Shown piece by piece: positions 9,286 to 59,838 of a DNA stretch of 64,000 nt. This DNA comes from Planctomycetota bacterium (GTDB taxonomy: Bacteria > Planctomycetota > Phycisphaerae > WQYP01). The notes beneath the pieces were generated by a model. That model searched no databases and was not told the DNA's origin. It was given only the letters and a program-made list of their open reading frames with translations. The position numbers and the translations under genes were made by a program. The stretch is taken from positions 7,517 to 71,516 of the forward strand of contig JAJZCR010000001.1 in NCBI GenBank assembly GCA_021851715.1. The letters run 5' to 3'. Each line of letters opens with the position of its first letter. Position 1 is the stretch's first letter.

Positions 9286-10287
9286 TTACGGAATCGCCGG
9301 CAACGACTGGGGCACCACGTAACCGCGGAACCATGCCAGTGTCCAGAGGTCGGGCAACGCCACATATTCCGCATGACCATCCAAAAACACCACATTCACC
9401 CCATCGCCATGGCGCAGCATGGCATCATATTCAAACCCGTCGGTTTGTGGGCCGGAATCCAGGTTATCCGCGTACTGGGCGGTGCCCGGGGCCGCGGCAG
9501 GGGTGGGGTTGGGATTGAGGTTATTCAGGTGCGAATCCGGAAATTGGTTGCTTTCCGGCCACGTTTGCCAAAAGATACTATCGAGAAAAAGCGGGATTTT
9601 GGAGCGGTCGTATGAAACAGAGTGCGTGGGCCACGCGTAGGGCTGCATCCACTTTATATAGTTCCATGTGGCCTGATTATAAAGATAACCGTTGTAGGCG
9701 TAACTGCACCACCAGCGGGTGGAGGCCCCATTCCAGTTAGCCCCGGTCTCGTAATGCCAGGCCACGGAGGCTGAGCCGGCCCCCGCCCAATCCAGAGCCG
9801 TGGTGGGCAGTTTCATCACCTGTGTGGATGGACACACCAGCGCGGTATTGGGGGAGCTGTCCACCATGCCCAGGGCGGGGTTGGTATTCAGGCCGCCCGG
9901 AACTATGTACGGGGTGTAGAAATGCACCCATGTATTTCCGCCCGGCATGTTCAGCGCCGAGTTATTCTCCCCGTAGTTACACCGCTGACCTTGGTAATCC
10001 GCCTGATATTGGATTACCGCCAGGCCAAGCTGCCGCTCGTTGGAAAGGCACAATACCGAATCCGCCGCCCGCCGGGCCGCGGCTAAGGCCGGCAAAAGCA
10101 GGGCAATCAGAAGGGCGATGATGGAGATCACCACCAAAAGTTCCACCAAGGTAAAACCGTGCAGGGGCCGACGGAACCCGGCAAAATTCCGCGGCGGGTG
10201 TGACTTTTTACAACCCCTGACACGGAGATACGTATTATGCCCGACGCCCGGAACAGTGTCATGTAGTACATTGGCGTTGATCTTCAT
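9286..10287 (-). CDS. Prepilin-type N-terminal cleavage/methylation domain protein (DUF1559 / H-x9-G class)
   Basis: It has the [17 protein letters not shown] prepilin motif and a C-terminal [13 protein letters not shown] signature typical of DUF1559 proteins in Verrucomicrobia and Planctomycetes. The leader would be unusually long (about 49 aa); no closer ATG, GTG or TTG start is visible. Confidence 0.7.
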
Positions 10288-10308
10288 AAGACCATCCTTT
10301 CACGGTTA

Positions 10309-12162: not shown

Positions 12163-12275
12163 ACCATTAGTCTCTTTTCACGGCTGCTACGCACAACCGC
12201 ACGAAAAACAAGAGCCGGAGACTTTATATCCCCGGCCCTCCCGTTTTCATCACTCGCCAGTCGGCGGCCCGTCAT

Positions 12276-14162
12276 TCAGGCTCGGCGAGGGCGCATCAAT
12301 AGCAGCCCCACACCGGCCATGGCCAGCAGGCCAAGCGTCGCTGGTTCGGGTATAGACGTGCTTTCAAAATTCGACAGATAAAGTTCGTTGCCGGATTGTA
12401 AAAGCTCAAAACTTCCCGATCCGCCGATGACGCCGATTCGCGAATTCACCGCCACATTGGCAAAAGCGCCGGAAAGTCCATTGGAGAGCAGAAAAGCGAA
12501 CGCATCGGTCGCGGTCGGAGTAAACCCATTAACCAGGCTTACGGATAAATCGCCCCCCAACGTGACCAAGCCGGCACCGGCACCGCTGCCGGCATCGGCA
12601 GTCGTTGTGTCGAGAAGGTCGTAGCCGTTGGTTTTCACCCCCTGGTTGACTCCGCCAATGTCGATAGCCAGCGTGCCGGAGGTCTGATCGTAATTGCCGG
12701 CCAGTAACGTTTTCCCCGTGGTCCCCACTCCGCCCACCGCCAGCGTACCCCCGGAATTGGTGAAGGTGCCAGTGTTATTGGCGGTAGTAATGGGGTCGTA
12801 GCTCAGGCTGGAGTTGTACATCGACAGCGTTCCGCCGGTAAAGTTGAAGGTTCCCGTGAACCCGCCGCTGGCACCGGCGATTTCCGGCGTGGTAAGAATG
12901 CCTCCCGACAGATTTACGATACCCCCCGTGCTAAGCTGCATGGCTTGGCTCTCATCAACGGAACCGGTGCCGTTGACATTCAGAATACCCCCTGCCTGCA
13001 ATTTAATTCCACCGAGCGACAACGTACCGCCGCTGACGCGCATCGTTGCGGTTCCAGGAGTGGTGGCGGGGGAGGTGATAGTACCACCGCCGATGTAGTT
13101 ATAGTTGCCCGTATAAACGTCAACAGTGCCGCCCGTTTGCGTGAAATTGGAGGTGGCCGCGTTGGCACCACTGGCACCGGGCAGCATGACAATCTGGTTA
13201 AGATAAACATTACCACCGGAAATATTAACGTTCGACGTGGTACTCGCCGCGGCATCACCACTCAAATTGACGTGATAGGTTTTTGTGAGGTCGCTGCTAT
13301 AACCGAGCACACCACCGGTGACATTGAGCGATCCTGTGGTGGAGGAGCCTTGGTTGGCTATGTAAATCCCCAACCCGGAGCCGCTTCCCGGCACCAGGCT
13401 GCCGCTGCTCACGCTCAGCGTTCCAGCGCCGTTGTCACTGATCAGCATACCATTGGGGCTGGTCGTGGTTACGGCTCCTCCATTTACCGCAAAGGTACCC
13501 CCTATTTCGGCCCAGACCGAATAGATGCCTCCCGCAGTCAGCGTGCCGCCGGATACACTCACTGTCCCGCGCTCAGCGAAAATAGAACCCGTGGACGAGC
13601 CACCTCCGTCCAGCGCCAACGTGCCCGCCGCGTTGCCGGCGATCGAATCGTATTGGATGTAGTTGCCGCTGCCGCCGGAAAGCGTAAGCTTCCCAGAAAG
13701 CGTAAGCGTGCCCGCGCTGGAGTTGGTGATCACAAGGTTGTTGCCGCTTCCCGTGGAACCAGTGATCGGTGCGGCGATGGTATCGCCGGCGCTACCCAGG
13801 TTTTCCGTGATATTGCCGACTGTGAGCGCGTTGCCCGAGCCGCCGCCGACGGTGTAGGTGTTGGAACCGTCGCCGTTGGTGGCCGGGCTGCCCAACGTCA
13901 GCGCCGAAAGCGTAATTCCCCGGCCCAGCGAAATCACCTGATTGCCGACGATGCCGGGGGTGAGATAGGCCCCGTCGCTGGTCGCATTTGGAAACCCGGT
14001 GTTGGGGCTCCAGTTACTGGTGGTAGTCCAGGCGTAACTACCGCCAGTGGTTGGTGTCCAAGTGTACGTGGTTGCCCGCACGCCGGCGGACTGTACCGCC
14101 ATCGCCGCCCCGGCCACAGCCGCCGAAGCCAGCACTACTTTGAGATTGAGTTTCCTTGACAT
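12276..14162 (-). CDS. PEP-CTERM sorting-domain surface protein, paralog 2
   Basis: Start MSRKLNLKVV at 14162. The repeat architecture matches paralog 1. The C-terminus SIPEPATLGLLAMAGVGLLLMRPRRA is a canonical PEP motif plus transmembrane segment plus Arg cluster. Confidence 0.7.
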   Translation of the reverse strand: MSRKLNLKVVLASAAVAGAAMAVQSAGVRATTYTWTPTTGGSYAWTTTSNWSPNTGFPNATSDGAYLTPGIVGNQVISLGRGITLSALTLGSPATNGDGSNTYTVGGGSGNALTVGNITENLGSAGDTIAAPITGSTGSGNNLVITNSSAGTLTLSGKLTLSGGSGNYIQYDSIAGNAAGTLALDGGGSSTGSIFAERGTVSVSGGTLTAGGIYSVWAEIGGTFAVNGGAVTTTSPNGMLISDNGAGTLSVSSGSLVPGSGSGLGIYIANQGSSTTGSLNVTGGVLGYSSDLTKTYHVNLSGDAAASTTSNVNISGGNVYLNQIVMLPGASGANAATSNFTQTGGTVDVYTGNYNYIGGGTITSPATTPGTATMRVSGGTLSLGGIKLQAGGILNVNGTGSVDESQAMQLSTGGIVNLSGGILTTPEIAGASGGFTGTFNFTGGTLSMYNSSLSYDPITTANNTGTFTNSGGTLAVGGVGTTGKTLLAGNYDQTSGTLAIDIGGVNQGVKTNGYDLLDTTTADAGSGAGAGLVTLGGDLSVSLVNGFTPTATDAFAFLLSNGLSGAFANVAVNSRIGVIGGSGSFELLQSGNELYLSNFESTSIPEPATLGLLAMAGVGLLLMRPRRA

Positions 14163-14232
14163 ACAGCACTCTCCTTTCAAAAAAGAGCTAAATCGCAATC
14201 GGCCGGCGGCCACAAACCGCTGACACATTTGC

Positions 14233-15459
14233 TCAAACCTTTTGAGCCTTCCGTGGCCGCCGGATTCCAGCCGGCGCGCCGGCCCGGTCGATACCCTTAT
14301 CATCCGGTGCTGCCGCCGTCGCGCGGTCCGTCTCAACGATTTCGATATTCACTTCACTGCTTTCCGCCGCTTCTCCCTGTATGCGACTCAGCAGCATCTG
14401 TCCGAATTCCTGAACGAATTCATTGGGATCCACCTGTAATTTTACAATTGGAAACGGACTGGTCAGCCCGGAACCCTTGTTGAAATGCGTAACCACCAGC
14501 AGATCTTCCGGCACGCGAATGCCCAACTGACAAATAGCCATCGCCGCGCCCAAAAACAGCACATCGTCGCACACCACCAGGCCATCGGGTTTTTCCCGGC
14601 TGCTGGCCCAGATTTCCCGAAATTCCTCCCAGCCTGCGCCTGGCGCTCCAGGCGGAAGATCGTTGCGTATCCAAGATTGATTGACCGCCGCGCCCGCCGC
14701 TGCCAACGCTTTCTGAAAGCTGTCCAGCACCGGATCAGAACGCGGTACCCCTGGCAACCGCGGCTCCAGCCACTGCATCAACGCAATGCGCCGGCGGCCG
14801 TGCCGCAACAAGTACTCCGCTCCCATCTGACTCTTGCGCGGGTCGTAAATCAGTGGACAGCAGGAACCCGATGGTTCATTGATTTCCCGGGAGCGGACTA
14901 CGGGAATGTCCTTCCCGCGCAGCAGCTCCAACCAGCCTGAGCCGGTCGGTTCATCCAGGGCCAGGACCCCGCGTATCTGGTGGCTGTCAAGCGCTTGGGC
15001 AAATTCGGTGCAGGTTAGATCGGCGCGCGGCGGCTCCGCATGGGAAACATCGCCTACGTACAACTTGGCGGAAAAGCCCTGCGCTTGGAAAAAGCGCACC
15101 AATTGCCGCGGCACATAACGGTAAAAATAGGAGGCGTGCGGATCAAAAATATCCCGCTCGCACCACACCGCCACATGCCGGCCCGCATTCCAGTCGCAAA
15201 CGTAGGTTCCACTGCCGGAACGGCGTTCCACCAGACCTTGCGTTTCCAGCACGCTTAGCGATTCCCGCACCGTCTGATAGCTTACGCCGAATCCCTTGGC
15301 CATCTCCATAATCGGGGGCATGATCTGGCCCGGCTTGTAATGGGCCATGATTTCCCGCCGCAGGACGTCCGTGATCTGCTTGGCCAAGTTGGACCGCACG
15401 ATAGACTGGGTTGTAAACGCCGCATTTTTCATCAAATTCTCACGATCATTTTTTTGCAA
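14233..15459 (-). CDS. Hybrid transcriptional regulator: GntR-type winged HTH fused to a LacI-like periplasmic-binding-fold sugar-binding domain
   Basis: N-terminal ...FGVSYQTVRESLSVLETQGLVERRSGSGTYV matches the GntR HTH. The remainder resembles a LacI/PBP type 1 effector domain. The true start is probably MKNAAF at 15432. Confidence 0.7.
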   Translation of the reverse strand: MQKNDRENLMKNAAFTTQSIVRSNLAKQITDVLRREIMAHYKPGQIMPPIMEMAKGFGVSYQTVRESLSVLETQGLVERRSGSGTYVCDWNAGRHVAVWCERDIFDPHASYFYRYVPRQLVRFFQAQGFSAKLYVGDVSHAEPPRADLTCTEFAQALDSHQIRGVLALDEPTGSGWLELLRGKDIPVVRSREINEPSGSCCPLIYDPRKSQMGAEYLLRHGRRRIALMQWLEPRLPGVPRSDPVLDSFQKALAAAGAAVNQSWIRNDLPPGAPGAGWEEFREIWASSREKPDGLVVCDDVLFLGAAMAICQLGIRVPEDLLVVTHFNKGSGLTSPFPIVKLQVDPNEFVQEFGQMLLSRIQGEAAESSEVNIEIVETDRATAAAPDDKGIDRAGAPAGIRRPRKAQKV

Positions 15460-15689
15460 ATTATAAAGCCAATAGCTGCTAACTAACTACAATATTAACA
15501 AAATAAATCACAACGTCAATCAAAAAGCCTCAAAACCCCGATGGCCGTCAGATCGATCTCAATTTTTGCACATCATACCACCCGTCACGCACACTGTCAA
15601 ATAATAAAACACTCACAACTAATTCTAGTAGCAATCGAGTCAATCGCTTTCCGCTGATAACGATACCGACCGTCCCACCGCATGTCAAA

Positions 15690-17327
15690 TCAAAATTTCC
15701 GCCAAGTCCGGCCTGCGGATCCGTTGCATTCAGCGCACCGCCGCCGGGGCCACAGAAAAACACCAGCCCCCAGCAGCACGAAAAACATCGTTCGCGGCTC
15801 GGGCACCGCCGTAAAATTCCAGGCCAGTGCGTAGTCGCCGACCGGATTGGCGGCCGTTGCCGAACCAAGCTCCATTACCGCCAGATCATATTCGCCTGGC
15901 GTCAGGCCCGTCAGGTCAAGTTGTTGCACGTTATCGATGGCGCTTTGACTCCACGCAAGTTGCCCGGAGGTGTTGAGCAAATACAAATAATAGTGCGGCA
16001 TCTTCAGAGTGCCGCCTGCCCAGGTGACATTCCAGTCCAAGGTGGCGTTTAAATTCCATAGGGTATGCGCGCCGCCAGTGAGGTCAAATGCGTAGTGATT
16101 AAGTTGATTGTTTCCGACGGTGGTGGAAATGGCGGCCAGATTCCAACCCTCCAGCGATGATTCAACCGGCCCAACCAAGTTAGCAACCGGAACGGCATTA
16201 ACCGGCAGCGATGTGGCACCGGTGGCGGCGTGTTCACCGGCGATCAGGTTTTCATAAGAATTGTAAACATTTACCACACCCGAACCATACCGCGGATCCA
16301 GCGGCGTAATGGCGAAATTCGTCGGCGCATTGTACGTGTAGATTCCATTACCGGCGCTGTAAGAATTGGTCCAGCCGGGCGGCTTCGTCGCGCCGTTCAG
16401 GAGCAGGGCCTTAATCGTGCGAATATCCGTAGCGGCGGTGGCGGTGCCGGCTCCGCCCAGCCCCTCAGCCCCGGCCTGAACCAGCAGAGTAGCCGCACCG
16501 GAAACAACCGGCGTGCTGAAGCTGGTGGCGGTGCCGGGAGCGGTAATATCCGGCTTAGACCGGCCATCCCACGTTGGCCCAATGCCGGAACCACCATTCA
16601 GAGCCGCCACACCGATACTGTTGTAAGCGTCACCGGGCGGGTTGATTTGGCTCGGCGGCGAGGTGAGCGTGCTCGAACCATCGCCGATCGCGGATACAAA
16701 AAGGGTATTATTGGCGGCGGCATAGTTGTCGTAAAGAGCGTCGAGAAATGGGATGCCCGAGGGGGAGCTGTTTTCATAAGGAAAGATAAAGCTCTGGTTG
16801 ACCACTTCGGGAGCGTTGGTCTGCCCGGTTGGAACCAGTGTTTTTCCACCCGATATCGTCGTCCATGATTGCGTTGCATCCCACACATAGATGCTCGACA
16901 CCCCCGGCGATACGCCATGGTATGGAGATCCCCCGTAAAATATCTGGGCGACGTCGGTGGCATGGTTGGATTCTTCAGTAGTGTTCTGCGTGGAAGCTAC
17001 GGTTCCGTTACCGTTTACAAAGGTAAACTTGGAGGTCGGCTGGCCGGTGGAACTGATGATGGGTTCAAATGCGTCCGTTGTGGTCGAAGTGCTTGCCTCC
17101 ACTTGGGCCACCGTAACGCCGGATCCGGTAAGGCCGGGTGCCACCTGCTGAAGCTCGGACAGGCCAATTTGCTGGTCCAGCGTCAGCGCCCCGTTCACTG
17201 GCGGCACGCTAACTGTCGCCACTGCGGCCACAGCCAACACGCAATTGTAGCTGGAACAGAGCACCAGCCTGCGACGGTTTTTCCCAGCCATTACGTTGGG
17301 CCAAAGAAAAGATATTTTCGTTGCCAT
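15690..17327 (-). CDS. S8 subtilisin-like serine peptidase with a PEP-CTERM sorting tail
   Basis: HATDVAQIF (His box), GTSFSTPVVSGAATLL (Ser box) and a C-terminal VPEPRTMFFVLLGAGVFLWPRRR. Confidence 0.75.
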   Translation of the reverse strand: MATKISFLWPNVMAGKNRRRLVLCSSYNCVLAVAAVATVSVPPVNGALTLDQQIGLSELQQVAPGLTGSGVTVAQVEASTSTTTDAFEPIISSTGQPTSKFTFVNGNGTVASTQNTTEESNHATDVAQIFYGGSPYHGVSPGVSSIYVWDATQSWTTISGGKTLVPTGQTNAPEVVNQSFIFPYENSSPSGIPFLDALYDNYAAANNTLFVSAIGDGSSTLTSPPSQINPPGDAYNSIGVAALNGGSGIGPTWDGRSKPDITAPGTATSFSTPVVSGAATLLVQAGAEGLGGAGTATAATDIRTIKALLLNGATKPPGWTNSYSAGNGIYTYNAPTNFAITPLDPRYGSGVVNVYNSYENLIAGEHAATGATSLPVNAVPVANLVGPVESSLEGWNLAAISTTVGNNQLNHYAFDLTGGAHTLWNLNATLDWNVTWAGGTLKMPHYYLYLLNTSGQLAWSQSAIDNVQQLDLTGLTPGEYDLAVMELGSATAANPVGDYALAWNFTAVPEPRTMFFVLLGAGVFLWPRRRCAECNGSAGRTWRKF

Positions 17328-35211: not shown

Positions 35212-36222
35212 TCAAGTGGCGCGTGGGTGGGCGCTTTCGTAGGCCTCGCGGATCCGGTGCGTGGTCAGGTGGGTGTAAATTTGCGTGGTGCTCAGACTCT
35301 GGTGGCCCAGCAATTCCTGCACCGACCGTAAATCCGCCCCATGGTTGAGCATGTGCGTGGCAAAGCTGTGCCGCAGCGTGTGCGGGCTGATATCCGGATC
35401 GAGGTGGGCTTCCAGCAGGTATTTATCCAACTTTCGCCGCACCGACCTGGTGCTTAATCGCTGGCCGTGCTTGTTAATGAACAGCGAAGAGACGGAACTG
35501 CCGGCGGGCACGGTAGAATTGCGCATGGGCATATATTTTTGAATGGCGTTCATGGCGGTCTGGCCGACGGGGTTCAGGCGTTCCTTTTTGCCTTTGCCGC
35601 GGACTTTGATGACATTGCCGGAAAAATCCACATCGTCGACATTAAGTCCCACCAGTTCGCTTACCCGCATGCCGGTGCTGTAAATGACTTCCAGCATGGC
35701 TTTATCGCGTGAACCAAGCAGGTCGGTATCTTTCGGGGTTTGCAGAAGCCGGTTGACCTGCTCTTCGGTCATAAATTTGGGCAGGCGTTTTTCCAGCTTC
35801 GGCGTGCGAATGGTGAGCATGGGGTTGTTGCCGGTGAGGCCGCGTTTGTTGAGGAATTTGAAAAAGCTGCGGAGGGTAGCCAGTTTTCTGGCCATGGTGG
35901 CTTTGGAATAATTCTGTTCGCGCATCTTCTGCAGGTAGTTGCGCACGTCATCAACATTGGCGTTCACCAGCAATTGATCGAGTTGCTCAGGCGAAGATTC
36001 GGTGGCCTGAGCCGCCGCGGCTGGAATGGCGGCCGGCGCTGATGCCGGCGAATTTCCCGTGCCATTTACCGCCGGTGTCGGGGCACCGGGATTAGCCAAA
36101 AAACCGCCGAATTGCTTGAGATCTGCGCCATAGCAGCGGCTGGTGTAGCTGGAAAAATGCCGTTCAAATTGCAGATAATTGAGAAAATCTTGAACCCGTG
36201 CTGGGAGAATGAAGGTTTCCAT
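35212..36222 (-). CDS. Tyrosine site-specific recombinase of the XerC/XerD type
   Basis: N-terminal LQFERHFSSYTSRCYGADL core-binding domain. The catalytic RHSFATHML...LGHQSLSTTQIYTH contains the R-H-R-Y residues. Start METFIL at 36222. Confidence 0.8.
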   Translation of the reverse strand: METFILPARVQDFLNYLQFERHFSSYTSRCYGADLKQFGGFLANPGAPTPAVNGTGNSPASAPAAIPAAAAQATESSPEQLDQLLVNANVDDVRNYLQKMREQNYSKATMARKLATLRSFFKFLNKRGLTGNNPMLTIRTPKLEKRLPKFMTEEQVNRLLQTPKDTDLLGSRDKAMLEVIYSTGMRVSELVGLNVDDVDFSGNVIKVRGKGKKERLNPVGQTAMNAIQKYMPMRNSTVPAGSSVSSLFINKHGQRLSTRSVRRKLDKYLLEAHLDPDISPHTLRHSFATHMLNHGADLRSVQELLGHQSLSTTQIYTHLTTHRIREAYESAHPRAT

Positions 36223-36813
36223 GATGAAATTACCGCCTCTATACCGGGGGACGTCATTTAGCCATTCCATAAGCCAGACAACGTCGCGCTACCGGCACGA
36301 CACAGGATGCCACCAGAGCGGCTTCCAGCCATCTCTGCCACGAAATCTCTCTTCGGCCATTTAGCGGCCGCACTTGCGGCCAAACTCATCGAAAAATCCC
36401 GCTCTGGGCATATTTGTTAAGCCCGGCCGGAATCCTTAAATTGCCGCTTGCCCCGAACACTTCTATCGGCTGTTTGGTTACGCGGACTGTACGTCGCGGA
36501 TGTTTTTGGAGCGGTGATTTTCGGGGCGGTAAAATTGGATAAAATGGGGGATTTGTATCGGACGGTGGGGGCCTATAACTTTAAGAGATAGGCCCGCAGG
36601 CTTGCAATTATTGTCCCAAGCGCCATAATCCGGTGTTTCGCGGTTGTCGCCGGACGTTGTCGGTGGTAACTGCGGTGACGGCAACGCCCAGGGCCGCCGG
36701 CCGCGACAGATATCGGACGGCAGCGCCCTGCAGGCAAGTCGGCGGTAACAGCGCTGATTCGCCGCCCGGGGCGGTGAATCCGGTGAAAATTTGAAGATTG
36801 GAAATAGCGGCGT

Positions 36814-51146: not shown

Positions 51147-51280
51147 GGTGTGCATTGAAAGAGAGAATCCCCGGAATGTAAAGCGTCCGCGGGTTTCTGA
51201 CATCCGGCTTTCCTGTGGTAGAATAACGTGCCGCACCAGCGTGGACAGCACGACCAGTGTCAAAAGTACAGGATGAAAGC

Positions 51281-52261
51281 GCCATGGCTCGAAAATTTAC
51301 CGATCTGACTGAAAAGGAAATCCTTGCCATGGCGATCACGCAGGAAGAAGAAGATGGCCGCATCTATGGCGAATTTGCCCTGACCTTGCGCCCCACATTC
51401 CCGGAATCTGCCAAGGTCTTTGACGAAATGCAAAAAGAAGAATCGGACCACCGGCACAGGCTCATCGAACTGTACCGGCAGCATTTCGGAGAGCATATTC
51501 CCCTGATTAAACGCGATGAAATCCGCGGGTTTATCAAGCGCAGTCCGCTTTGGCTGGTGCTGAAAAAAGGCCCCAAAGCCATGCGCCAACAGGCCGAAAT
51601 CATGGAACTGGAAACGCGGCGTTTTTATGAAAAGTCCGCCGCGCGTACCACCGATGCCTCCATTCGCAAATTGCTCATTGATCTGGCCGAGGCCGAGCAA
51701 AAACATTCCGATGTTGCCGCCCACCTGGGGGAGACCAACATTACATTCGACGTACAAAAACAGGAAGAGGAAGCGAACAAGAGATTGTTTGTGCTGCAAA
51801 TTGTCCAGCCCGGCCTTGTGGGCCTCATGGACGGTTCTGTTTCCACCCTGGCACCCATTTTTGCCGTGGCGTTTTTCAGCCATGATCCGTGGGCTGCCTT
51901 TCTGGCGGGGCTGGCTACGTCGGTAGGTGCTGGTATCTCCATGGGTTTTGCGGAAGCTCTTTCCGACGATGGTGCCCTGACCGGCCGCGGACACCCCTTC
52001 GTGCGGGGGATGGTCTGCGGCTTGATGACTGCGGCGGGCGGCCTGGGCCACACCCTGCCGTTTCTCATTCCGCATTTTTTTACTGCGACCAGTGTTGCGG
52101 CCGTGGTGGTGTTTTTTGAACTGATCGGAATCAGTTGGATTCGCTACCGGTTCATGGATACACCACTCTGGCAATCATTTCGCACGGTGTTCATCGGCGG
52201 CTTACTGGTCTTTCTCGCTGGTGTGGCCATCGGCTATTTTGGTCACGGCGTGGGAGGTTAA
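51281..52261 (+). CDS. Ferritin-like (rubrerythrin-type) domain fused to a VIT1/CCC1-family iron/manganese transporter
   Basis: N-terminal ...ILAMAITQEEEDGRIYGEF...ESDHRHRL di-iron-like motifs. The C-terminal half carries VIT-family membrane helices. Confidence 0.65.
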   Translation, partial: AMARKFTDLTEKEILAMAITQEEEDGRIYGEFALTLRPTFPESAKVFDEMQKEESDHRHRLIELYRQHFGEHIPLIKRDEIRGFIKRSPLWLVLKKGPKAMRQQAEIMELETRRFYEKSAARTTDASIRKLLIDLAEAEQKHSDVAAHLGETNITFDVQKQEEEANKRLFVLQIVQPGLVGLMDGSVSTLAPIFAVAFFSHDPWAAFLAGLATSVGAGISMGFAEALSDDGALTGRGHPFVRGMVCGLMTAAGGLGHTLPFLIPHFFTATSVAAVVVFFELIGISWIRYRFMDTPLWQSFRTVFIGGLLVFLAGVAIGYFGHGVGG

Positions 52262-53128: not shown

Positions 53129-53159
53129 TTGACTTCCTGCGTGCCCAGCGTCTATAATT
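53129..53159 (+). promoter_or_regulatory. Sigma-70-like promoter of the ars operon (TTGACT-N19-TATAAT)
   Basis: TTGACT at 53129-53134 and TATAAT at 53154-53159, about 57 bp upstream of the arsR ATG. Confidence 0.45.
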
Positions 53160-53192
53160 CGTCAATTGACGAAGTGTGGAAGTATTTTCCAC
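53158..53192. promoter_or_regulatory. Putative ArsR operator: perfect 16-bp palindrome TTCGTCAATTGACGAA plus adjacent GTGGAA-N5-TTCCAC
   Basis: Read directly. The palindrome overlaps the end of the -10 element and lies between the promoter and arsR. Confidence 0.5.
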
Positions 53193-53215
53193 GGGCACAG
53201 AGCACTGGAGCGGTC

Positions 53216-53587
53216 ATGATGATGCGTGAATTTATCCAAATGGCTGCGGCCCTTGCCGATCCGGCACGGGTGCGGGCATTGTTGGCGTTGCGCGATGGAG
53301 AATTGTGCCTGTGCCAAATTATTGACCTGCTGGGTTTGGCACCATCCACGGTTTCGCGTCATTTGAATCTGCTTTATCAGGCCAAATTGGTGGAACGGCG
53401 TAAGCAGGGACGATGGATGTATTTTACCCTGGCGGGTAAAGCCGCCTCGCCACCGGTGCAGCAGGCGATCGCCTGGGCCGGTGCCGCGCTGGCTGCGGAT
53501 GGCTTGATCAAACAGGACGCCCGGCGTGTGAAAAGCCTGTGCCGGCAGGACCTTGTGGAGCTTTGTGCATGTTATCGTCCAAGTTGA
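53216..53587 (+). CDS. arsR: ArsR/SmtB-family arsenite-responsive repressor
   Basis: ELCLCQI metal-binding motif inside the HTH (…LGLAPSTVSRHLNLLYQAKLV…). Confidence 0.85.
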   Translation: MMMREFIQMAAALADPARVRALLALRDGELCLCQIIDLLGLAPSTVSRHLNLLYQAKLVERRKQGRWMYFTLAGKAASPPVQQAIAWAGAALAADGLIKQDARRVKSLCRQDLVELCACYRPS

Positions 53588-54054
53588 AAATTCTGTTTTT
53601 ATGTACGGGTAATTCCTGCCGCAGTCAGATGGCTGAAGGCTGGGCCAGGGCCTTGAAAGGGGATGTTCTGGAACCGTATTCGGCGGGCATTGAAGTGCAC
53701 GGCTTAAATCCCACTGCGGTCAAGGTGATGGCAGAAGCAGGTGTGGATATCAGCGGGCACCGGTCCAAGATGGTGAGTGAATTGAGGGATGTTTCTTTTG
53801 ACGCGGTGATTACCGTGTGCGGCCACGCCCACGAAACCTGCCCCGCCTGGCTGGATAAAAAAAGTACGCTGCGGCACGTGGGCTTTGATGACCCTCCCAA
53901 GTTGGCCAAAACCGCCAAAACCCCTGAGGAAGCATTGGGCCATTACCGGCGTGTACGTGATGAGATTCGGGCATTTGTACAAACGCTGCCGGAATCACTT
54001 GGCAAAAATGTTTTATCGGCGCAGGCCGGGGCTGGTGAAGGGAGCCGACGATGA
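53569..54054 (+). CDS. arsC: Arsenate reductase, thioredoxin-coupled LMW-PTP type
   Basis: CTGNSCRS P-loop and downstream Cys pair in VITVCGHAHETCP. It overlaps arsR by 19 nt. Confidence 0.85.
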   Translation: MLSSKLKILFLCTGNSCRSQMAEGWARALKGDVLEPYSAGIEVHGLNPTAVKVMAEAGVDISGHRSKMVSELRDVSFDAVITVCGHAHETCPAWLDKKSTLRHVGFDDPPKLAKTAKTPEEALGHYRRVRDEIRAFVQTLPESLGKNVLSAQAGAGEGSRR

Positions 54055-54146
54055 AAGGTGTGTTCGCAGTATCTGATGCCGCCATGTGCTGTTCCACCGG
54101 CGTATGCGGGCCGGAGGCAGGCAAATCCGGAATGCAGGGCCTGTGA
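54051..54146 (+). CDS. 31-codon ORF encoding an ArsD-like N-terminal head (arsD remnant or mini-ArsD)
   Basis: MKGVFAVSDAAMCCSTGVCGPEAGKSGMQGL*. The first 20 residues match the ArsD N-terminus (MKTLMVFDPAMCCSTGVCG), including Cys12-Cys13-Cys18. There is an ATGA overlap with the arsC stop and a GGAG 6 nt upstream. Confidence 0.4.
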   Translation: MKGVFAVSDAAMCCSTGVCGPEAGKSGMQGL

Positions 54147-54207
54147 CGGAAAAGATCCTGGAGTCCTGGCGGTTGGCGTAAGCGGATCATAAAAAAGAAG
54201 CGCGAAC

Positions 54208-55380
54208 ATGTCACGGGTATTCAAAAAACTTTCGGTTCTCGACCGCTTTCTGACGCTGTGGATTTTCGCAGCCATGGGGGTGGGCATCGGGGTGGGATAT
54301 TTATGGAAGGGCTTGCCGCGGGTGATGGGGCATTTTGAGTTCGGCACCACCAACCTGCTTCTGGCCGCGGGCCTGATTTTGATGATGTATCCGCCGCTGG
54401 CCAAAGTCCGCTATGAAGAACTGGGTAAGGTATTTGGCAACGTCCGGGTGCTGGGGCTTTCGTTGCTGCAAAATTGGGTGATCGGCCCGATGGTGATGTT
54501 TGCCCTGGCGGCCCTGTTTTTACATGGCCATCCGATGTTTATGATCGGGCTGATTTTGATTGGTCTGGCCCGCTGCATCGCCATGGTGATTGTGTGGAAC
54601 GAGTTGGCACGCGGCGATACGGATTACGCCGCGGGTTTGGTGGCATTTAACAGTGTTTTTCAGGTGGTTTTTTACAGCTTGTATGCTTGGCTGTTTATTA
54701 AGGTGCTGCCGCCGCTGGTGGGGTTGCACTTTCCGGCGGTGAACCTGGCGGAAATTTCCATGGTAAGCATCGCCCGGAGCGTCTTTATTTATCTGGGTAT
54801 TCCATTTTTAGCTGGTCTGGTGACGAGAATGGTGCTGATACGTGCCTGCGGTAAGCCTTGGTATGAACAGCACTTTATCCCGCGCATCAGCCCCATAACC
54901 CTGGTGGCGCTGCTGTTTACCATTGTGGTGATGTTTGCGTATCAGGGTCGGCAGATCATAGGGGAGCCTGGTTCGGTAGTACTGATAGCGATACCCTTGC
55001 TGATTTATTTTGTGGTAATGTTTTTGATCAGTTTTTGGATGGGGCGTCGGATCGGGGCTGATTACGCCCAAACTGCGACCATTTCGTTCACGGCCGCCAG
55101 CAATAATTTTGAGCTGGCCATTGCCGTGGCGGTGGCGCTGTTTGGCGTGGCCAGCCCGGTGGCATTTACGGCGGTCATCGGCCCGTTGGTGGAAGTGCCG
55201 GTGATGATTGGTCTGGTGACTGTAGCACTGTATTTTCAGCGGCGTTATTTTGGCCGGACGGTGAGCAATGGCTTGCCCTCACCAGGCGCAGCAGCCTGCC
55301 CCACCTTCATTCCTACCGGTGTGGGAGGCGGGAGTGCTATTTCCGAACAAGGGGCCGGCTTGGGTCATAAGGAGTCTTAG
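54208..55380 (+). CDS. acr3: ACR3-family arsenite efflux permease
   Basis: 390 aa with 10 transmembrane helices and ACR3 signature regions (…MYPPLAKV…, …CIAMVIVWN…). Confidence 0.9.
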
Positions 55381-55381
55381 C

Positions 55382-56329
55382 ATGTCTGAATCGATTGTTG
55401 ATACCGTGAAATCTCGTTATGGAGCCGTGGCCGAATCTTCTCTTTCCAGCCGGGATGTCGGCGTTCGGGCTGTGGCCGAGGCGTTTGGTTATACAGCGGT
55501 GGAATTGTTGGCGATTCCCGCTGACGCCAACATGGGGCTTTCCTGCGGCAATCCGACGGCGATGGCCTCGCTGAAGGCGGGGGAAGTAGTGGTGGATTTT
55601 GGCTGCGGCGGCGGGTTGGATGTATTTCTGGCGGCGGCGAAAGTGGGGCCGCAGGGCAAAGCCATCGGCATTGATATGACCCCGGCCATGATTGAGCGGG
55701 CACGAAAAAACGCCGCCCGTGGTCCGGATGGCCGGCCATACACGAATGTGGAATTCATTCTTGCCGCCATGGATCGGACCACATTGCCCAGTGGCAGTGT
55801 GGATTGCGTGATTTCTAATTGCGTGATCAATTTGGCCGAGGATAAGGCGGCGGTGTTTCGGGAAATAGAGCGGATACTCAAGCCCGGCGGGCGGCTGGCG
55901 ATCAGCGATATTGCGCTCAAAAAACCCCTGCCGCCGGAGTTGGCAAATAACGTGGCAGCCTATGTGGGTTGCATTGCGGGGGCCATATCGATGGAGGATT
56001 ATGAGCGGCAGCTTAAACACGCCGGATTGACACAAGTGGTGATCATGGATAGCGGAGCAGATTTGAATTCCTACGCCAAGGCGGAAGGCCAGAGCGGCTG
56101 CTGCGGACCGGCGATGAATGACCAGGCCGGCCAGGATGCCAATGCGTTGAAACCCGGGGGCGATTCGCCCTTACGGGTGCTGCCCGCCACGTGCTGCGAT
56201 CAGAATGCAGCGCATCGGGTCGGCGGGGTGGAAAAGCCTCTTCATGGGGTGATGCGCGATTTGCTGGCCCGTTACAACATCAACGATTACGCAGCCAGCG
56301 TGAAGGTGCTGGCGATTAAGCCGAATTAG
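55382..56329 (+). CDS. arsM: Arsenite S-adenosylmethionine methyltransferase
   Basis: SAM-binding VVDFGCGGG and conserved Cys residues (…LSCGNPTA…, …CVISNCV…). It starts 1 nt after the acr3 stop. Confidence 0.85.
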
Positions 56330-56468
56330 ACATTGGCAGGCGTGGCGATAACTGTGGTGAAAAATTGGCGCATGGAGCCACACCAGACGGTGCCGCAATG
56401 CAGCACAGCAGAGCACTGGGGCGGGCGGCAGGAACCTTTGCAATCGGGGTAAGGCTTAAACCAACAGA

Positions 56469-57149
56469 TCAAATAAGCTCCAGAAGCTTCTTGATTGGCG
56501 CAAGGCCGGAATGGTCTGCATTCCATAGCCCTGCTTTTGCGCTTTCGCCAAGCGTTTGCTCAGGCTTGGCTGACGCGGCAATTAAACTGTGCACTTTAAC
56601 CTTCGCTTTCCAGTTGTTGATCGCCGAGGAATCCCGGCGGTCTGGCTGCTGCAAACACGACATAAATCTCTCTACGCATTCCGGAGGCTGATTTCCCGCA
56701 TATGCCTCCAAAAGCATATCCTCTATACATCCAGATTCCTTTTCGTGGGGCACAATCAGGTAGGCTGTGTTGGGGCCACCGGCAGGACCCGGTGATGCGG
56801 GCTTCAGAGGTGCCTGTGGAACGGCGAGGCCCGCGGCTCGAAAGGCCGCTGATAGTGATCGAGCAGTTCCTGTTTTGTCACCCTCCGCATCATAAATCGC
56901 CCCAACCGCTTTCACATGTTCGCGGAAACCAGACGTACGAACAAGGACGTCAAACGCCGATTGCATGTCATCACGGCCACCACCATTTAAAACCCATATC
57001 TGTCGGGTTTGCAGCAATTTCGGGAATAGTCCGCGTATAAGGAACTCGAGGTTTTTGCCTTCGACTATCACAATCGCCCGTGTCTCCGGCGAGGGCTTAA
57101 AGCCTCCTGCGGAAACCGCAGCCGCGGTCCTGGCACCAGATAGGGCCAT
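56469..57149 (-). CDS. DUF4276-family (TOPRIM/OLD-nuclease-like) protein, partner of the upstream ATPase
   Basis: N-terminal AIVIVEGKNLEFLIRGLFPKLL (VEG-x-E signature), an acidic cluster YDAEGD, and a later CIEDMLLEAY. Its ATG overlaps the ATPase stop. Confidence 0.55.
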   Translation of the reverse strand: MALSGARTAAAVSAGGFKPSPETRAIVIVEGKNLEFLIRGLFPKLLQTRQIWVLNGGGRDDMQSAFDVLVRTSGFREHVKAVGAIYDAEGDKTGTARSLSAAFRAAGLAVPQAPLKPASPGPAGGPNTAYLIVPHEKESGCIEDMLLEAYAGNQPPECVERFMSCLQQPDRRDSSAINNWKAKVKVHSLIAASAKPEQTLGESAKAGLWNADHSGLAPIKKLLELI

Positions 57150-58243
57150 CAACGCACCTCAACGTCTATCTTTTCGGCTGTGCGCAACATCTCTGTGTCG
57201 TAACGTGTCGGCTCAACGTTACCATCTACCTGGCGGTCAAGCCGAAATATGGCCACATCGTTTGTGCCTTCCGGAAAGGCCTTGACCAAAGCTCGGAGCA
57301 TCTCTTCATTATGGGTTGAGCAAAATAGCTGCACCTTACATTGACTGCACATTGCGGCAACACCCTGCCAGAAGCCCGGCATCGTAGAATAATGGAGGCC
57401 AGAATCAATTTCGTCCACGATGACCATCTTGGCATTGCGGCCAGCTAAACCAGTTGCGATCAGGCAAATGCGGCAAAAGCCATCTCCCAAAAGCTGAATC
57501 GGCATGCGGCGCAATTGCTCGCCCAAATCGGCCAACACAGCAGTCTGGCCGCCACGCACTCCCGCCCACAGCCCCCGCACTTTCGGGTTGACAGTGCGCA
57601 ATAGTTCGTAAAGCATCTCCTCGAGCCTTTCCTGCGCCAGGTCGGTAAGAACATTTGCTGTCTCGTTGAGGCTTGTTGCCCTCCTCGCATGCACATAAAA
57701 GGCTCCCGGATCACCGCTTGCAACCAGGAACGGCGGCTGCGGTTGAAGAAGGCCTTGCGGCGTCAAAATGGCACGCATGTTGTCGCCGGTTGTTCTGGGC
57801 AGGATGCGGTAGAGCACGCCGCCTATGCGGTCTTCGCCAGTTGTAGCCGGTGGGCCGGGCTCAAAGATGTCGCCCGGCTTTTGTTCATCCTGACCGCCCA
57901 CGGCAGGAATGGTTCCGTAATCACCGAAAATCGCTGATATCTCCAGCCCGCGCTCTCCATGTTCGCCAGTGGCACCCAACGAAATCCGTACCCTTGGATC
58001 CAGATTGAAAAAAAAGCAGCGCAAGGGCACATCGAATTGCGGCGAAGCCCTCGGCTGATCACGCCAGGCCGCCAGGTTCAACAATAGTTGCGGGGCCGCC
58101 CTATTCCCCAGAATCATCAGCGATTCCAGCAGCGATGTTTTTCCGCAGCCGTTTTCACCAATGAAGATATTGAGGCGTGCCAACCCGTCAATCTTAAGCG
58201 ATTTTATGCCTCGAAAATTTTGTACCCGAATTTGAGAAAACAT
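57149..58243 (-). CDS. AAA_21/ABC-type ATPase (OLD / AriA / PtuA / AbiLi-like)
   Basis: N-terminal IRVQNFRGIKSLKIDGLARLNIFIGENGCGKTSLLESL (Walker A). C-terminal MVIVDEIDSGLH (Walker B / D-loop) and CSTHNEEML (H-loop). It lacks ABC transporter partners or an ABC-signature transporter context. Confidence 0.75.
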   Translation of the reverse strand: MFSQIRVQNFRGIKSLKIDGLARLNIFIGENGCGKTSLLESLMILGNRAAPQLLLNLAAWRDQPRASPQFDVPLRCFFFNLDPRVRISLGATGEHGERGLEISAIFGDYGTIPAVGGQDEQKPGDIFEPGPPATTGEDRIGGVLYRILPRTTGDNMRAILTPQGLLQPQPPFLVASGDPGAFYVHARRATSLNETANVLTDLAQERLEEMLYELLRTVNPKVRGLWAGVRGGQTAVLADLGEQLRRMPIQLLGDGFCRICLIATGLAGRNAKMVIVDEIDSGLHYSTMPGFWQGVAAMCSQCKVQLFCSTHNEEMLRALVKAFPEGTNDVAIFRLDRQVDGNVEPTRYDTEMLRTAEKIDVEVR

Positions 58244-58614
58244 AACCGATGCCCCCGGCGATTTTTTATATATTAACCTCCACGGTCAGGAATTGCCAGG
58301 GGCCTTACAGCCGCGTTTTTCGCCGCCACTAACTTTTGCACTGTTGCGCCGGTCCGGGATTGCCGCACCGTTTTAATCGTCGGCGACGGGCTGTCTATCC
58401 ACCAGGGCGAATTGCTTGAGTCGCGGCCAGTTAATTCGCAGGCAGAGAGCCGTCATCGGGGAGCTGCCAACGGCCATCGCCGGTCTGTTTTACGGGGGCA
58501 GCCTGCGACAACTGTCTGCGTGCTTTTTTGTAGTTGACCTATTCGCGGTGATTGTTGCTGCCGCCTCCAAAGTGTGCCAGCCCTCATTGCTGCGAAGGCA
58601 AGTTGATGGAGAGG

Positions 58615-58623
58615 TGCTATAAT
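58615..58623 (+). promoter_or_regulatory. Extended -10 promoter element TGcTATAAT
   Basis: TG at 58615-58616 and TATAAT at 58618-58623, upstream of the small ORF and TatD-like gene pair. Confidence 0.35.
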
Positions 58624-58676
58624 TCAATGGGTTGTCGGCGGTGCCCGGAAAGTCCGTTCTTGGAGGCTGTATTGTC

Positions 58677-58916
58677 ATGGCAGCGACTATCACTCATCCC
58701 CGTCCGGCCAGCGAAACGCTGGATATTTATTTTCTGGAAATGCGGGCGAAATTGCTGGAAATCGGTGCGACGCTGGATCGTATTGATCGCTCCGCGCGGC
58801 CGGAGGAAGTGGTTGCGGATCCGCGACTGGCGTTTATCCGGGAGGCTTTGGCAGTGCTGCAATCCGCCGGGCCGGAGCGGGCACGGCGGATAGAGGAACT
58901 CTATTCTCTTCAGTAA
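58677..58916 (+). CDS. Small hypothetical protein, about 79 aa
   Basis: MAATITHPRPASETLDIYFLEMRAKLLEIGATLDRIDR.... The start is taken as ATG 58677; the supplied ORF begins at TTG 58632. No recognisable family. Confidence 0.35.
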   Translation: MAATITHPRPASETLDIYFLEMRAKLLEIGATLDRIDRSARPEEVVADPRLAFIREALAVLQSAGPERARRIEELYSLQ

Positions 58917-58974
58917 GTGGGTGCCGGGCAACGTGCTTGTGGGGGCTGGCGGCGATGACACGAGGAGCGTTTGA

Positions 58975-59838
58975 ATGTTTTTTATAGATCCGCATATTCA
59001 CATGGTATCGCGCACGACGGCGGATTATGAGATGCTGGCGCTGTCGGGAGTGGTGGCAGTAAGCGAGCCGGCGTTTTGGGCCGGGTTTGACCGTTCGCCG
59101 GCGGGCTTTGTTGATTATTTTCGGCAGTTGACGGAATTTGAACCCGTGCGGGCGGCGCAATTCGGCATTGATCATTATTGCTGGATATGTTTAAACCCCA
59201 AAGAGGCGGAAGATTTGGGCAAGGCACGTGAGGTTTTGGCGGAAATGCCGCGATTTTTGGATCAACCCAATGTGCTGGGCATTGGAGAGATCGGGCTGAA
59301 TAAAAATACCGCCAACGAGGTCAAGGTATTTCAGCAGCACGTGCAGATGGCCATTGATGCGGCCCGCCGACAAACAGCGGGTGCTTCCCCGGCCATGCGT
59401 CATGCCCTGATTCTGATTCATACTCCGCACCTGCAGGACAAGCTCAAAGGTACGCGGCTGATTTTGGAGATGCTCAAGGATTTCGGCAACGCGATTGATC
59501 CCGGCCGGGTGCTGATCGATCACGTGGAGGAACACACCATCGGCCTGGTGAAAGAGGCGGGGTATTGGGCGGGCATGACGATTTACCCGATCAGCAAAGC
59601 CACACCGCAGCGGGCGGTGGATATGATGGAAATGTATGGGCCGGAGCGTCTATGCGTCAATGCGGCCGCGGATTGGGGCGTGAGCGATCCGCTCAACACC
59701 CATCGGACCATGCAGGAGGCGCGTCGTCGCGGGCACCCGCTGCCGGTGCTGCTGGATGTATTTTATAACAACCCGGCCCGATTTTTCGGCCAAAATCCCC
59801 GCTTCAAGCCCAAACCCATGCGGATGGCCACGCTCTAA
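58975..59838 (+). CDS. TatD-like / amidohydrolase-superfamily metal-dependent hydrolase
   Basis: N-terminal FIDPHIHM metal-binding motif, with later His/Asp/Glu ligand positions (…IHTPH…, …IDHVEEH…). Confidence 0.65.
   Translation: MFFIDPHIHMVSRTTADYEMLALSGVVAVSEPAFWAGFDRSPAGFVDYFRQLTEFEPVRAAQFGIDHYCWICLNPKEAEDLGKAREVLAEMPRFLDQPNVLGIGEIGLNKNTANEVKVFQQHVQMAIDAARRQTAGASPAMRHALILIHTPHLQDKLKGTRLILEMLKDFGNAIDPGRVLIDHVEEHTIGLVKEAGYWAGMTIYPISKATPQRAVDMMEMYGPERLCVNAAADWGVSDPLNTHRTMQEARRRGHPLPVLLDVFYNNPARFFGQNPRFKPKPMRMATL

Follow-up and report, generated by a model that had tools for sequence, protein, structure and literature searches.

A coupled gene pair for a Rad50/SMC-like ABC ATPase and a DUF3226 Toprim-fold protein as a candidate split OLD-like antiphage module

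The window, that is, the whole stretch of 64,000 nucleotides that was analysed, contains two overlapping genes that probably constitute a module for defence against phages or mobile elements. One encodes an ABC ATPase resembling Rad50/SMC, and the other, translationally coupled to it, a DUF3226-family protein that resembles an OLD-type Toprim nuclease and stands alone. Modules that combine an ABC ATPase with a Toprim domain (OLD, Gabija, PARIS, AbiL) are a recurring design in bacterial immunity, and their trigger and target are known for few of them. The original prediction presented the pair as an OLD/PARIS/AbiL-like candidate antiphage module. Its general architecture holds, with an AbiLi-type ATPase and a Toprim-like partner, but the partner has no match to AbiLii, AriB or DUF4276 models, and the antiphage role is the one that analogy with those systems suggests. 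The annotation of the window should be corrected accordingly to DUF3226 instead of DUF4276, and to a stand-alone insertion instead of a defence island.

Gene organisation and local context

The ATPase gene (57149..58243, minus strand), of PDC-M38A type, encodes a protein of 364 aa, and the gene of its Toprim-fold partner (56469..57149, minus strand), of PDC-M38B type, one of 226 aa that starts with an ATG at 57149; the ORF listing offers an alternative TTG start at 57152, one codon longer. Both the sequence and the gene calls at homologous loci support a TGATG stop/start overlap of 1 nt between them (57147..57153, minus strand): at the junction, ...GTG CGT TGA TGG..., the A of the TGA stop is also the A of the ATG start, which implies translational coupling. 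This arrangement of two minus-strand genes had been proposed beforehand and is borne out by the ORF listing and the junction sequence, and in homologous pairs elsewhere the two genes overlap, or lie apart, by no more than a few bases. Neither ORF is a chance ORF; both are genuine genes. Strong homologues were found for each of them, and a related metagenome contig carries a copy of the pair at the same locus that is 87-91% identical, so that the pair is present in both contigs compared for this lineage. Comparison with this copy gives a dN/dS of 0.38 (ATPase) and 0.53 (partner). Neither gene is disrupted, and purifying selection acts on both.

The promoter of the pair presumably lies in the upstream intergenic region (58244..58631, minus strand), which is shared with a divergent 94-aa ORF and in which an AT-rich stretch, TTAATATATAAAAAAT, lies just upstream of the ATPase start. 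A consensus promoter scan inside this region detected none, with weak consensus matches only, and no Rfam family was found in it. At the other end, ~85 nt past the partner stop, a terminator-like hairpin followed by a T-run (56366..56385, minus strand; a consensus match only) possibly marks the end of a two-gene operon; it falls in the interval that separates the pair from arsM, which is convergent. Relative to another locus of the family (L005), synteny breaks here, where a variable ars operon lies next to the pair. The earlier proposal of an accessory patch that also includes a recombinase is weak, as nuo genes, an aminotransferase, a histidine kinase and panC separate the XerC/D-like recombinase of the window (35212..36270) from the pair. 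As for signs of mobile elements, the window has no tRNA genes, flanking repeats or GC deviation, and no defence-island context was seen in it. A retron-like or RNA-guided variant was considered and rejected, no associated ncRNA, tRNA or flanking repeats having been found.

The ATPase and its DUF3226 partner

The two Pfam families expected for the ATPase, PF13175 and PF13304, both score above their gathering thresholds (AAA_15, 53.9 bits with a cut-off of 32.1; AAA_21, 53.0 bits with a cut-off of 27). The motifs quoted in the original prediction are all present, namely the Walker A (G29-ENGCGKT36), the Walker B/D-loop (V274-IVDEIDSGLH284) and the H-loop (S309-THN312, including T310-H311), together with a signature-like LGDG at residues 252-255. 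In an alignment of 41 sequences of the family, the invariant or nearly invariant columns are G29-x-N-G-x-GKT36, D277-E278, G282-L283-H284, T310-H311 and G253-D254-G255, and the window ATPase has every one of these residues. A beta-rich insert occupies approximately residues 60-190, with a disordered variable loop (111-136) within it. Although the protein had been regarded as unusually short, 364 aa is a normal length for the family, in which more than 100 homologues measure 330-400 aa.

The ATPase has the fold of a Rad50/SMC-like ABC protein and not that of a transporter nucleotide-binding domain (NBD); transporter NBDs rank structurally below Rad50/SMC and defence ATPases. Its closest sequence models all bear defence labels (AbiLi, PDC-M38, AriA and HEC). 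The best single PADLOC match is to the AbiLi-labelled PDLC02336 (9.7e-49, model positions 1-340 of 340), and five PDC-M38A models are matched at 5e-40 to 2e-16 (PDLC04611 at 5.1e-40, PDLC04608 at 3.9e-35). A housekeeping ATP-binding subunit of an ABC transporter, with syntenic transporter genes in relatives, was the finding that the original prediction named as contradicting it. The annotations of some homologues do read EcfA2 or ABC transport ATPase, and at one locus (L010) a branched-chain amino-acid ABC transporter lies upstream, but this transporter is encoded on the other strand, together with an ATPase of its own. At no other locus examined does a conserved permease or binding-protein gene lie beside the pair, the scores of the ATPase on transporter models are far below their cut-offs, and its conserved neighbour is a Toprim protein. 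With no syntenic permeases and such scores, the transporter explanation is effectively refuted and we give it a negligible probability.

The partner had been assigned to DUF4276 (PF14103), to which it has no match even at E<=1; its sole significant Pfam match is DUF3226 (PF11536; E 2.8e-14, 53.9 bits with a cut-off of 27, profile positions 2-204 of 208). By contrast, the Toprim relationship that was part of the same assignment stands. The protein folds as a four-stranded parallel sheet between helices, superposable on known Toprim domains, and the features that define Toprim in PMC6755086 (an invariant Glu after strand 1, a conserved Gly and a DxD motif) are provided by E30, G58 and D87-A-E89. 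The VEG-x-E start that had suggested DUF4276 is correct as to VEG and not as to the spacing, which is VEG-x3-E (...IVIVEGKNLEF). The motif of the DUF3226 family is V-E-G-x-D, and the window partner has N at the D position. This family becomes visible only by an exhaustive HMMER scan: word-index searches for homologues of the partner gave only 3 and 9 proteins, and the full scan with DUF3226 gave 2362 representatives of 50% identity clusters at E<=1e-3.

The putative active-site residues of the partner are E30, N33 (Asp in the family), D87, E89, E143 and K183. An alignment of 137 sequences of the family shows strong conservation of E30 (99%), the adjacent G31 (99%), D87 (100%), D/E at position 89 (96%), E143 (99%) and K183 (98%), as well as a nearly invariant Gly after strand 2 (G58, 84%); E143 starts a helix (142-148) and K183 lies within another (174-191). 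As described in PMC6755086, the machinery of Bp OLD consists of E400, D455xD457, E508 and K562, with an OLD-specific second metal site formed by E404, T506 and E508 and the catalytic K562 located in the helical domain. Judging from the sequence, the signature residues of the partner appear to parallel E400, D455xD457, E508 and K562, and their order and conservation make N33, E143 and K183 candidate equivalents of the second metal site and the lysine, position 33, the second acidic residue of the family, probably corresponding to the metal-B ligand E404. When the partner family is aligned by hhalign with the Class 1 OLD protein YbjD of E. coli (E 0.0025), VEG falls on LLVEGETE and DAE on VDGDE, and the alignment continues through the C-terminal lysine helix. 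Sister partners have weak matches to the Toprim, OLD-like_TOPRIM, RloB and RT-Toprim models; the window partner has no match to the Pfam OLD-like_TOPRIM family. A Foldseek search of the partner against PDB gave nothing significant, a PDB sequence search with the partner and then with the family profile gave a marginal match to PH0156 only, and no PHROGs family matches it. The partner also contains a Cys triad (C141, C158 and C165), which across the DUF3226 family consists of C158 and C165 plus C146 or, compensating, C141, and its first ~24 residues form a low-confidence N-terminal extension.

Since position 33 carries Asp in 73% and Asn in only 6% of the 137 sequences, the D33N change might mean that the nuclease of the window pair is a remnant, decaying or already inactive, which would leave only the ATPase or a scaffold without catalysis. 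This would agree with PMC13261556, where the Toprim domain of E. coli YbjD is reported to be dispensable for its anti-phage phenotypes. We consider it unlikely. N33 is common to the nearest relatives of the partner (P0002, P0114 and P0115, 38-87% identical) and thus looks like a conserved state of the subclade rather than decay. Moreover, every other signature residue is intact, the nearby E35 could substitute, neither ORF is disrupted and dN/dS stays below 1 for both and, according to PMC6755086, single metal-ligand mutants of Bp OLD keep activity.

Distribution of the pair and its bearing on function

Genomes were scanned with the ATPase alignment (best match 29% identical), and co-occurrence is therefore counted from the ATPase side only. 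Of 51 loci where a family ATPase is followed by sufficient downstream sequence, 41 have a DUF3226 ORF that directly abuts the ATPase stop. These loci come from Chloroflexota, Cyanobacteria, Acidobacteriota, Spirochaetota, Firmicutes, Proteobacteria, Planctomycetota and other phyla, and also from viral contigs. The genes around the pair differ at every locus compared. Eight viral contigs in IMG/VR carry the pair, one of them a Klebsiella lambdoid prophage where it has the P helicase loader on one side and NinB/Q on the other. In related Klebsiella phages these flanks are present at 92-96% identity and the pair is missing, the slot that it occupies in this prophage being variable. A megablast search with the Klebsiella-prophage pair detected no copy either among INPHARED phages or in complete E. 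coli genomes, and tblastn found neither its partner in INPHARED phage genomes nor the window partner in PLSDB plasmids. In 21 genomic loci, only ~6-10 of the 126 neighbouring proteins match defence models at 1e-10, and a defence-island context of the pair outside the window is weakly supported.

Such a distribution is difficult to reconcile with a module for DNA repair, recombination or chromosome maintenance that works on host DNA, like RecF-RecR or SbcCD/Rad50-Mre11. The pair is sporadic across phyla, with different neighbours at every locus, its copies are pseudogenised or interrupted at three of them (L016, L026 and L041), and it occupies a variable prophage slot. In addition, the closest models of the ATPase are all labelled as defence, and dN/dS values of 0.4-0.5 are high for a core repair gene. 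A repair role is, in our opinion, improbable. Slightly less so, though still rather doubtful, is a selfish addiction module of the toxin-antitoxin kind, in which the ATPase would restrain a Toprim toxin and the pair would maintain itself or a linked region such as the ars cluster, without a dedicated antiviral role. The tight coupling of the genes, their horizontal spread and their position beside the variable ars operon at a synteny break are in line with this possibility, and PARIS is formally a toxin-antitoxin-like pair (PMC13064643). However, the toxicity of AriB needs its prior loading on AriA, and PARIS is a bona fide defence system (PMC11464382), so toxin-antitoxin behaviour and defence are not exclusive.

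Proposed mechanism and comparison with known systems

If the pair is, as we favour, a module directed against phages or mobile elements, its mechanism can be modelled on those of OLD, Gabija and PARIS. The ATPase would dimerise or oligomerise and serve as an ATP-dependent sensor or regulator. The part responsible is probably the variable beta-rich insert, whose position is that of the coiled coil in Rad50/SMC proteins and of the trigger-binding inserts in AriA. The ATPase would hold or license the Toprim partner, which may cut nucleic acid by two-metal catalysis through E30, D87/E89 and E143, aided by K183. The substrate could be DNA, as in OLD and GajA, or tRNA, as in AriB, and cleavage would stop the phage or other invading element. 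What we infer for the pair is that the partner is a nuclease with such a substrate, that the two proteins form a complex and that a trigger sets off a defence phenotype. Being compact (364 + 226 aa), the pair is suited to biochemistry. More tentatively, and with low confidence, the DUF3226 pairs might represent a distinct and widespread class of split OLD-like immune systems, with a small Cys-triad effector, a beta-rich sensor insert in a compact ATPase and, possibly, a trigger, target or regulation different from those of OLD, Gabija and PARIS (for example, redox or metal sensing via the cysteines).

In contrast with the OLD proteins, both of Class 1 (P2 Old, Ts OLD and YbjD) and Class 2 (GajA and Bp OLD), the window pair splits the ATPase and the Toprim domain onto two polypeptides. 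Its ATPase is shorter, with the beta-rich insert replacing the dimerisation/coiled-coil elements, and the conserved Cys triad of the partner is absent from the OLD description in the available part of PMC6755086. Unlike GajA systems, no UvrD-like GajB gene accompanies the pair. With respect to PARIS ("Class 4 OLD"), the window partner has no DUF4435/AriB match and one family member hits AriB only at E 0.009. The pair recalls AbiL, also an ABC ATPase plus a Toprim/OLD-like protein (PMC13064643), through its AbiLi-type ATPase, which matches PDLC02336 over its full length, but none of the AbiLii models is hit by the window partner at E<=1, and one family member reaches only E 0.036. The resemblance to RloAB is limited to a sub-threshold RloB match on one sister protein. 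The AAA_21 plus DUF4276 pairs have the same kind of architecture, an AAA_15/21 ATPase with a small Toprim-like partner, and differ in the Pfam family of the latter; DUF4276 is among the domains in the tree of AAA15/21 defence proteins of the PARIS paper (PMC11464382).

The founding DUF3226 structure, that of PH0156 from Pyrococcus horikoshii (PDB 2p62), comes from structural genomics, has no function assigned to it and shows only marginal sequence similarity to the window partner. The DUF3226 branch is large, extending over many bacterial phyla and some prophages, and PH0156 and PF11536 acquire a testable function now that the family is tied to the nuclease machinery of OLD and to a fixed partner ATPase. 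The literature searched contained nothing on DUF3226, PF11536 or PDC-M38, experimental reports included. PDC-M38 (A + B) is listed in PADLOC as a phage-defence candidate from a guilt-by-embedding survey, in which PDC systems are defined by their embedding in BREX, DISARM or type I RM loci and where the nearest tested analogue, HEC-01 (ATPase plus Toprim), gave no protection in assays (bioRxiv 10.1101/2024.01.29.577857). The window pair has the same gene order, ATPase then partner, adjacent and on one strand. In other genomes, the proteins paired with family ATPases match PDC-M38B models at 1e-51 to 1e-105, whereas the window partner, from a divergent subclade with N33 and the ~24-residue N-terminal extension, matches a single model (PDLC04623), only at E 0.004 and in its C-terminal residues 131-219, and for this reason PADLOC might not call the pair. 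The gap is bridged by DUF3226 relatives of the window partner that match PDC-M38B, P0197 at 2.4e-18 and P0119 at 6.6e-13, and the pair is a divergent example of this already listed candidate pairing rather than a new system.

Two overlapping genes and their surroundings

The minus strand of the window carries an ATPase gene (57149..58243, 364 aa) followed by a partner gene (226 aa) that runs from an ATG at 57149 to a stop at 56469. The ORF list and the sequence agree with the original prediction on the position of both ORFs and on their 1-nt overlap, visible in the junction CGT TGA TGG, where one base is common to stop and start. Such translational coupling would secure the co-production of the two proteins. 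Identical copies of the ORFs occur on several metagenome contigs, and a related contig (L005) has a copy in the same position, with a partner 87% and an ATPase 91% identical; compared with this copy, the ATPase gene has a dN/dS of 0.38 and the partner gene one of 0.53 (dS ~0.12). Both are real genes.

On its divergent side, the pair is accompanied by two plus-strand ORFs (58632-59838), one of 94 aa belonging to no family and a TatD-like one of 287 aa with a weak match to TatD_DNase (E 1e-4, below the cut-off), both kept beside the pair in L005 and absent beside its distant homologues. The other side is occupied by a convergent ars cluster (arsR-arsC-ACR3-arsM, 53129-56329). L005 shows the same arrangement, with the addition of arsD, a CMD-domain gene and arsA in the ars cluster (10809-16522), and its synteny with the window stops just past arsR, which marks the ars region as variable among close relatives. 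The accessory patch proposed for this context finds little support: between the pair and a tyrosine recombinase (35212-36270, minus strand; Phage_int_SAM_1 and Phage_integrase domains in a XerC/D architecture) lie nuoJ-N-type genes, panC and genes for an aminotransferase and a histidine kinase, and there is no tRNA gene, Rfam match, flanking repeat or GC anomaly. The surroundings of the pair form no recognisable island. Given its neighbours, a glycosyltransferase and nuoJ-N-type genes, the recombinase probably serves a housekeeping role and is unlikely to be an island integrase. Adjoining panC, a plus-strand gene (51257-52261) encodes a rubrerythrin domain fused to a VIT1 (vacuolar iron transporter-like) membrane domain.

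The ATPase and its DUF3226 partner

The three motifs first noted in the ATPase, GENGCGKT (residues 29-36), VIVDEIDSGLH (274-284) and STHN (309-312), are all found, in invariant or nearly invariant columns of the 41-sequence family alignment. Its Pfam matches to AAA_15 (3e-14) and AAA_21 (7e-14) both exceed gathering scores, and among PADLOC models it matches an AbiLi-labelled one over its full length (1e-48) and five of PDC-M38A, the ATPase component of a phage-defence candidate (top 5e-40), followed by AriA, PDC-M07A, HEC-01A/02A, NsnB, GajA, mad3 and PtuA. Its 364 aa, initially considered unusually short, are a normal length for the family, most of whose >100 homologues have 330-400 aa. NCBIfam models of transporters and of RecF/RecN/Rad50 match it at the P-loop region only, far under their cut-offs. 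A transporter role, as in a housekeeping ABC component with syntenic transporter genes, is excluded by these distant transporter matches and by the loci compared across phyla, in which no transporter genes are conserved beside the pair. The ATPase insert contains a loop (residues 111-136, window 57836-57913) rich in Gly, Pro and acidic residues, with pLDDT <50 and wide variation in length and sequence across the family, which is possibly a specificity determinant.

The partner had been predicted to belong to DUF4276, for which a Pfam search gave no match at E ≤ 1; it matches instead DUF3226 (PF11536) at 2.8e-14 over profile positions 2-204 of 208. Searches of its sequence against the PDB and PHROGs yielded nothing useful and a word-index search only three homologues; an HMMER scan covering all 1.84 billion cluster representatives retrieved 2362 proteins at E ≤ 1e-3 (1209 at E ≤ 1e-10), nearly all of 200-220 aa. 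One homologue (P0113, 443 aa) has two tandem DUF3226 domains, each with VEGKD, RDAE/RDAG, GMLE and K motifs. The signature of 137 aligned DUF3226 sequences reads V-E30-G31-x-D33 ... D87-A-[DE]89 ... P134 ... G140-x-L-E143 ... C158-x6-C165 ... K183, with conservation reaching 100% for D87, 99% for E30, G31 and E143, 98% for C158 and K183, and 96% for C165. The VEG expected at the partner N-terminus is present, though with a different spacing from the VEG-x-E proposed (VEGKNLE, or VEG-x3-E). Every signature residue is found in the window partner except at position 33, which is Asn, as in its nearest relatives, where the family has D33; that the window pair is a catalytically weakened copy nevertheless seems less likely. 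A third Cys is located at position 146 (61%) or 141 (23%, window partner included), a compensatory alternation that suggests, with C158 and C165, a metal or redox site. No such Cys triad was found described for OLD Toprim domains in the OLD literature consulted.

Against known structures, the partner scored 11.3 with PH0156, the DUF3226 founder (2p62), 10.2 with the C-terminal nuclease region of Burkholderia Class 2 OLD (6nk8, 154 residues aligned), 10.0 with T7 primase (1nui), 9.5 with Thermus OLD (6p74), 7.5-7.8 with DnaG, GajA, Topo VI-A and a small Toprim protein (5guj, 8u7i, 1d3y and 2i5r, respectively), and 7.2 with the Retron Eco2 Toprim (9i2f). According to PMC6755086, the OLD active site is made up of E400 (the Toprim Glu), E404, D455xD457, T506/E508 on the helical domain's first helix, and K562; DUF3226 positions 30, 33, 87/89, 143 and 183 have the same order and spacing. 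An hhalign comparison of the DUF3226 profile with E. coli YbjD, a Class 1 OLD, placed VEG on LLVEGETE and DAE on VDGDE (E 0.0025, probability 12%), the alignment extending through the lysine-bearing C-terminal helix. A Foldseek search of the partner against the PDB gave no significant match. We consider its Toprim fold well supported and only infer a residue-by-residue catalytic equivalence to OLD.

Distribution in genomes and viral contigs

Scanning the ATPase alignment through 185,579 species-representative genomes returned 80 loci, and the same scan of IMG/VR 33, all ORFs of which were searched with HMMs from both families. Of the 51 loci whose family ATPase reaches E<1e-40 and which extend 600 nt or more downstream of it, 41 have a same-strand DUF3226 ORF starting at the ATPase stop or a few bases from it. 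Several exceptions have an xEGxxD protein downstream instead, with PDC-M38B matches of 1e-51 to 1e-105, weak ones to Pfam DUF3226 and sub-threshold ones to Toprim, OLD-like_TOPRIM, RloB and RT-Toprim; others are interrupted or frameshifted copies. Because the hosts span many phyla (Chloroflexota, Cyanobacteria, including the isolate Gloeothece verrucosa, Acidobacteriota, Gemmatimonadota, Spirochaetota, Firmicutes, Proteobacteria, Planctomycetota, Verrucomicrobiota and Bacteroidota) and the flanking genes differ in every locus, the pair behaves like a cassette of two genes that moves horizontally. It might also be a selfish toxin-antitoxin-like module, which we find less likely.

Individual loci depart from this organization in various ways. 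A Chloroflexota MAG contig (L008) starts within a DUF3226 gene (1-531) and ends within a family ATPase gene (10222-10526), with cobalamin-biosynthesis genes between them, reflecting either two copies of the pair flanking a cobalamin cluster or an assembly break at a repeat. In a cyanobacterial MAG (L025:321-3397), the ATPase and DUF3226 genes are followed in tandem by another ATPase paralogue of the family (E 4e-62). Degraded copies include one with a 2.2-kb insertion separating the ATPase from a DUF3226 fragment (L016:7113-9840) and two with frameshifted partners (L026:6954-7780 and L041:6336-7192). In three Bacteroidota loci (L045, L047 and L053), a variant of the system combines an ATPase of ~710 aa, with a long extension at its N-terminus, and a partner of ~295 aa that matches the PDC-M38B model PDLC04615 at 2e-105.

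Eight IMG/VR viral contigs carry the pair, which was found in 0 of 50,697 phage records. In a Klebsiella lambdoid prophage (UViG_2721755834_000004; L093:2304-10206), it has the lambda-type O/P replication genes on one side and NinB/Q on the other, and the flanks recur in related Klebsiella phages at 92-96% identity with other DNA in the slot, a presence/absence polymorphism of the pair in a variable prophage site. Such slots are known mainly as sites of accessory and defence genes.

Putative function and relation to known systems

PDC-M38 is one of 145 untested PADLOC candidates chosen for their embedding in BREX, DISARM or type I RM loci; HEC-01, another combination of ATPase and Toprim, gave no protection when assayed by the same authors (bioRxiv 10.1101/2024.01.29.577857). 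This result and the scarcity of defence-matching neighbours (roughly 6-10 of 126 proteins at 1e-10 in PADLOC, 21 genomic loci) argue against a strong defence signal. The best-supported reading, in which we place moderate confidence, is by analogy an OLD- or PARIS-like split of labour. Sensing or regulation would fall to the ABC ATPase, probably via its variable insert, and the DUF3226 protein would act as a two-metal Toprim nuclease effector on DNA, as OLD and GajA do, or on tRNA, like AriB. A repair-type ATPase/Toprim pair is a less likely reading.

The partner belongs to DUF3226 and the ATPase to the AAA_15/21 ATPases. The pair is very probably a divergent member of PDC-M38: component A is matched and component B is adjacent, but the sequence link of the latter is weak for the window partner and strong through its family members. 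AbiL and PARIS were rejected on the partner, and DUF4276 was rejected as well; the pair is therefore a new, divergent member of a catalogued kind known only as an experimentally untested candidate. The literature searched contained no mention of DUF3226, PF11536 or PDC-M38 and, because a link of DUF3226/PH0156 to OLD nucleases is also absent from it, the family is of somewhat greater interest than the window copy. The D33N substitution of the window partner and the conserved Cys triad are features that known systems leave unexplained. The pair would work like a split version of the OLD nuclease, with ATPase and Toprim on separate genes.
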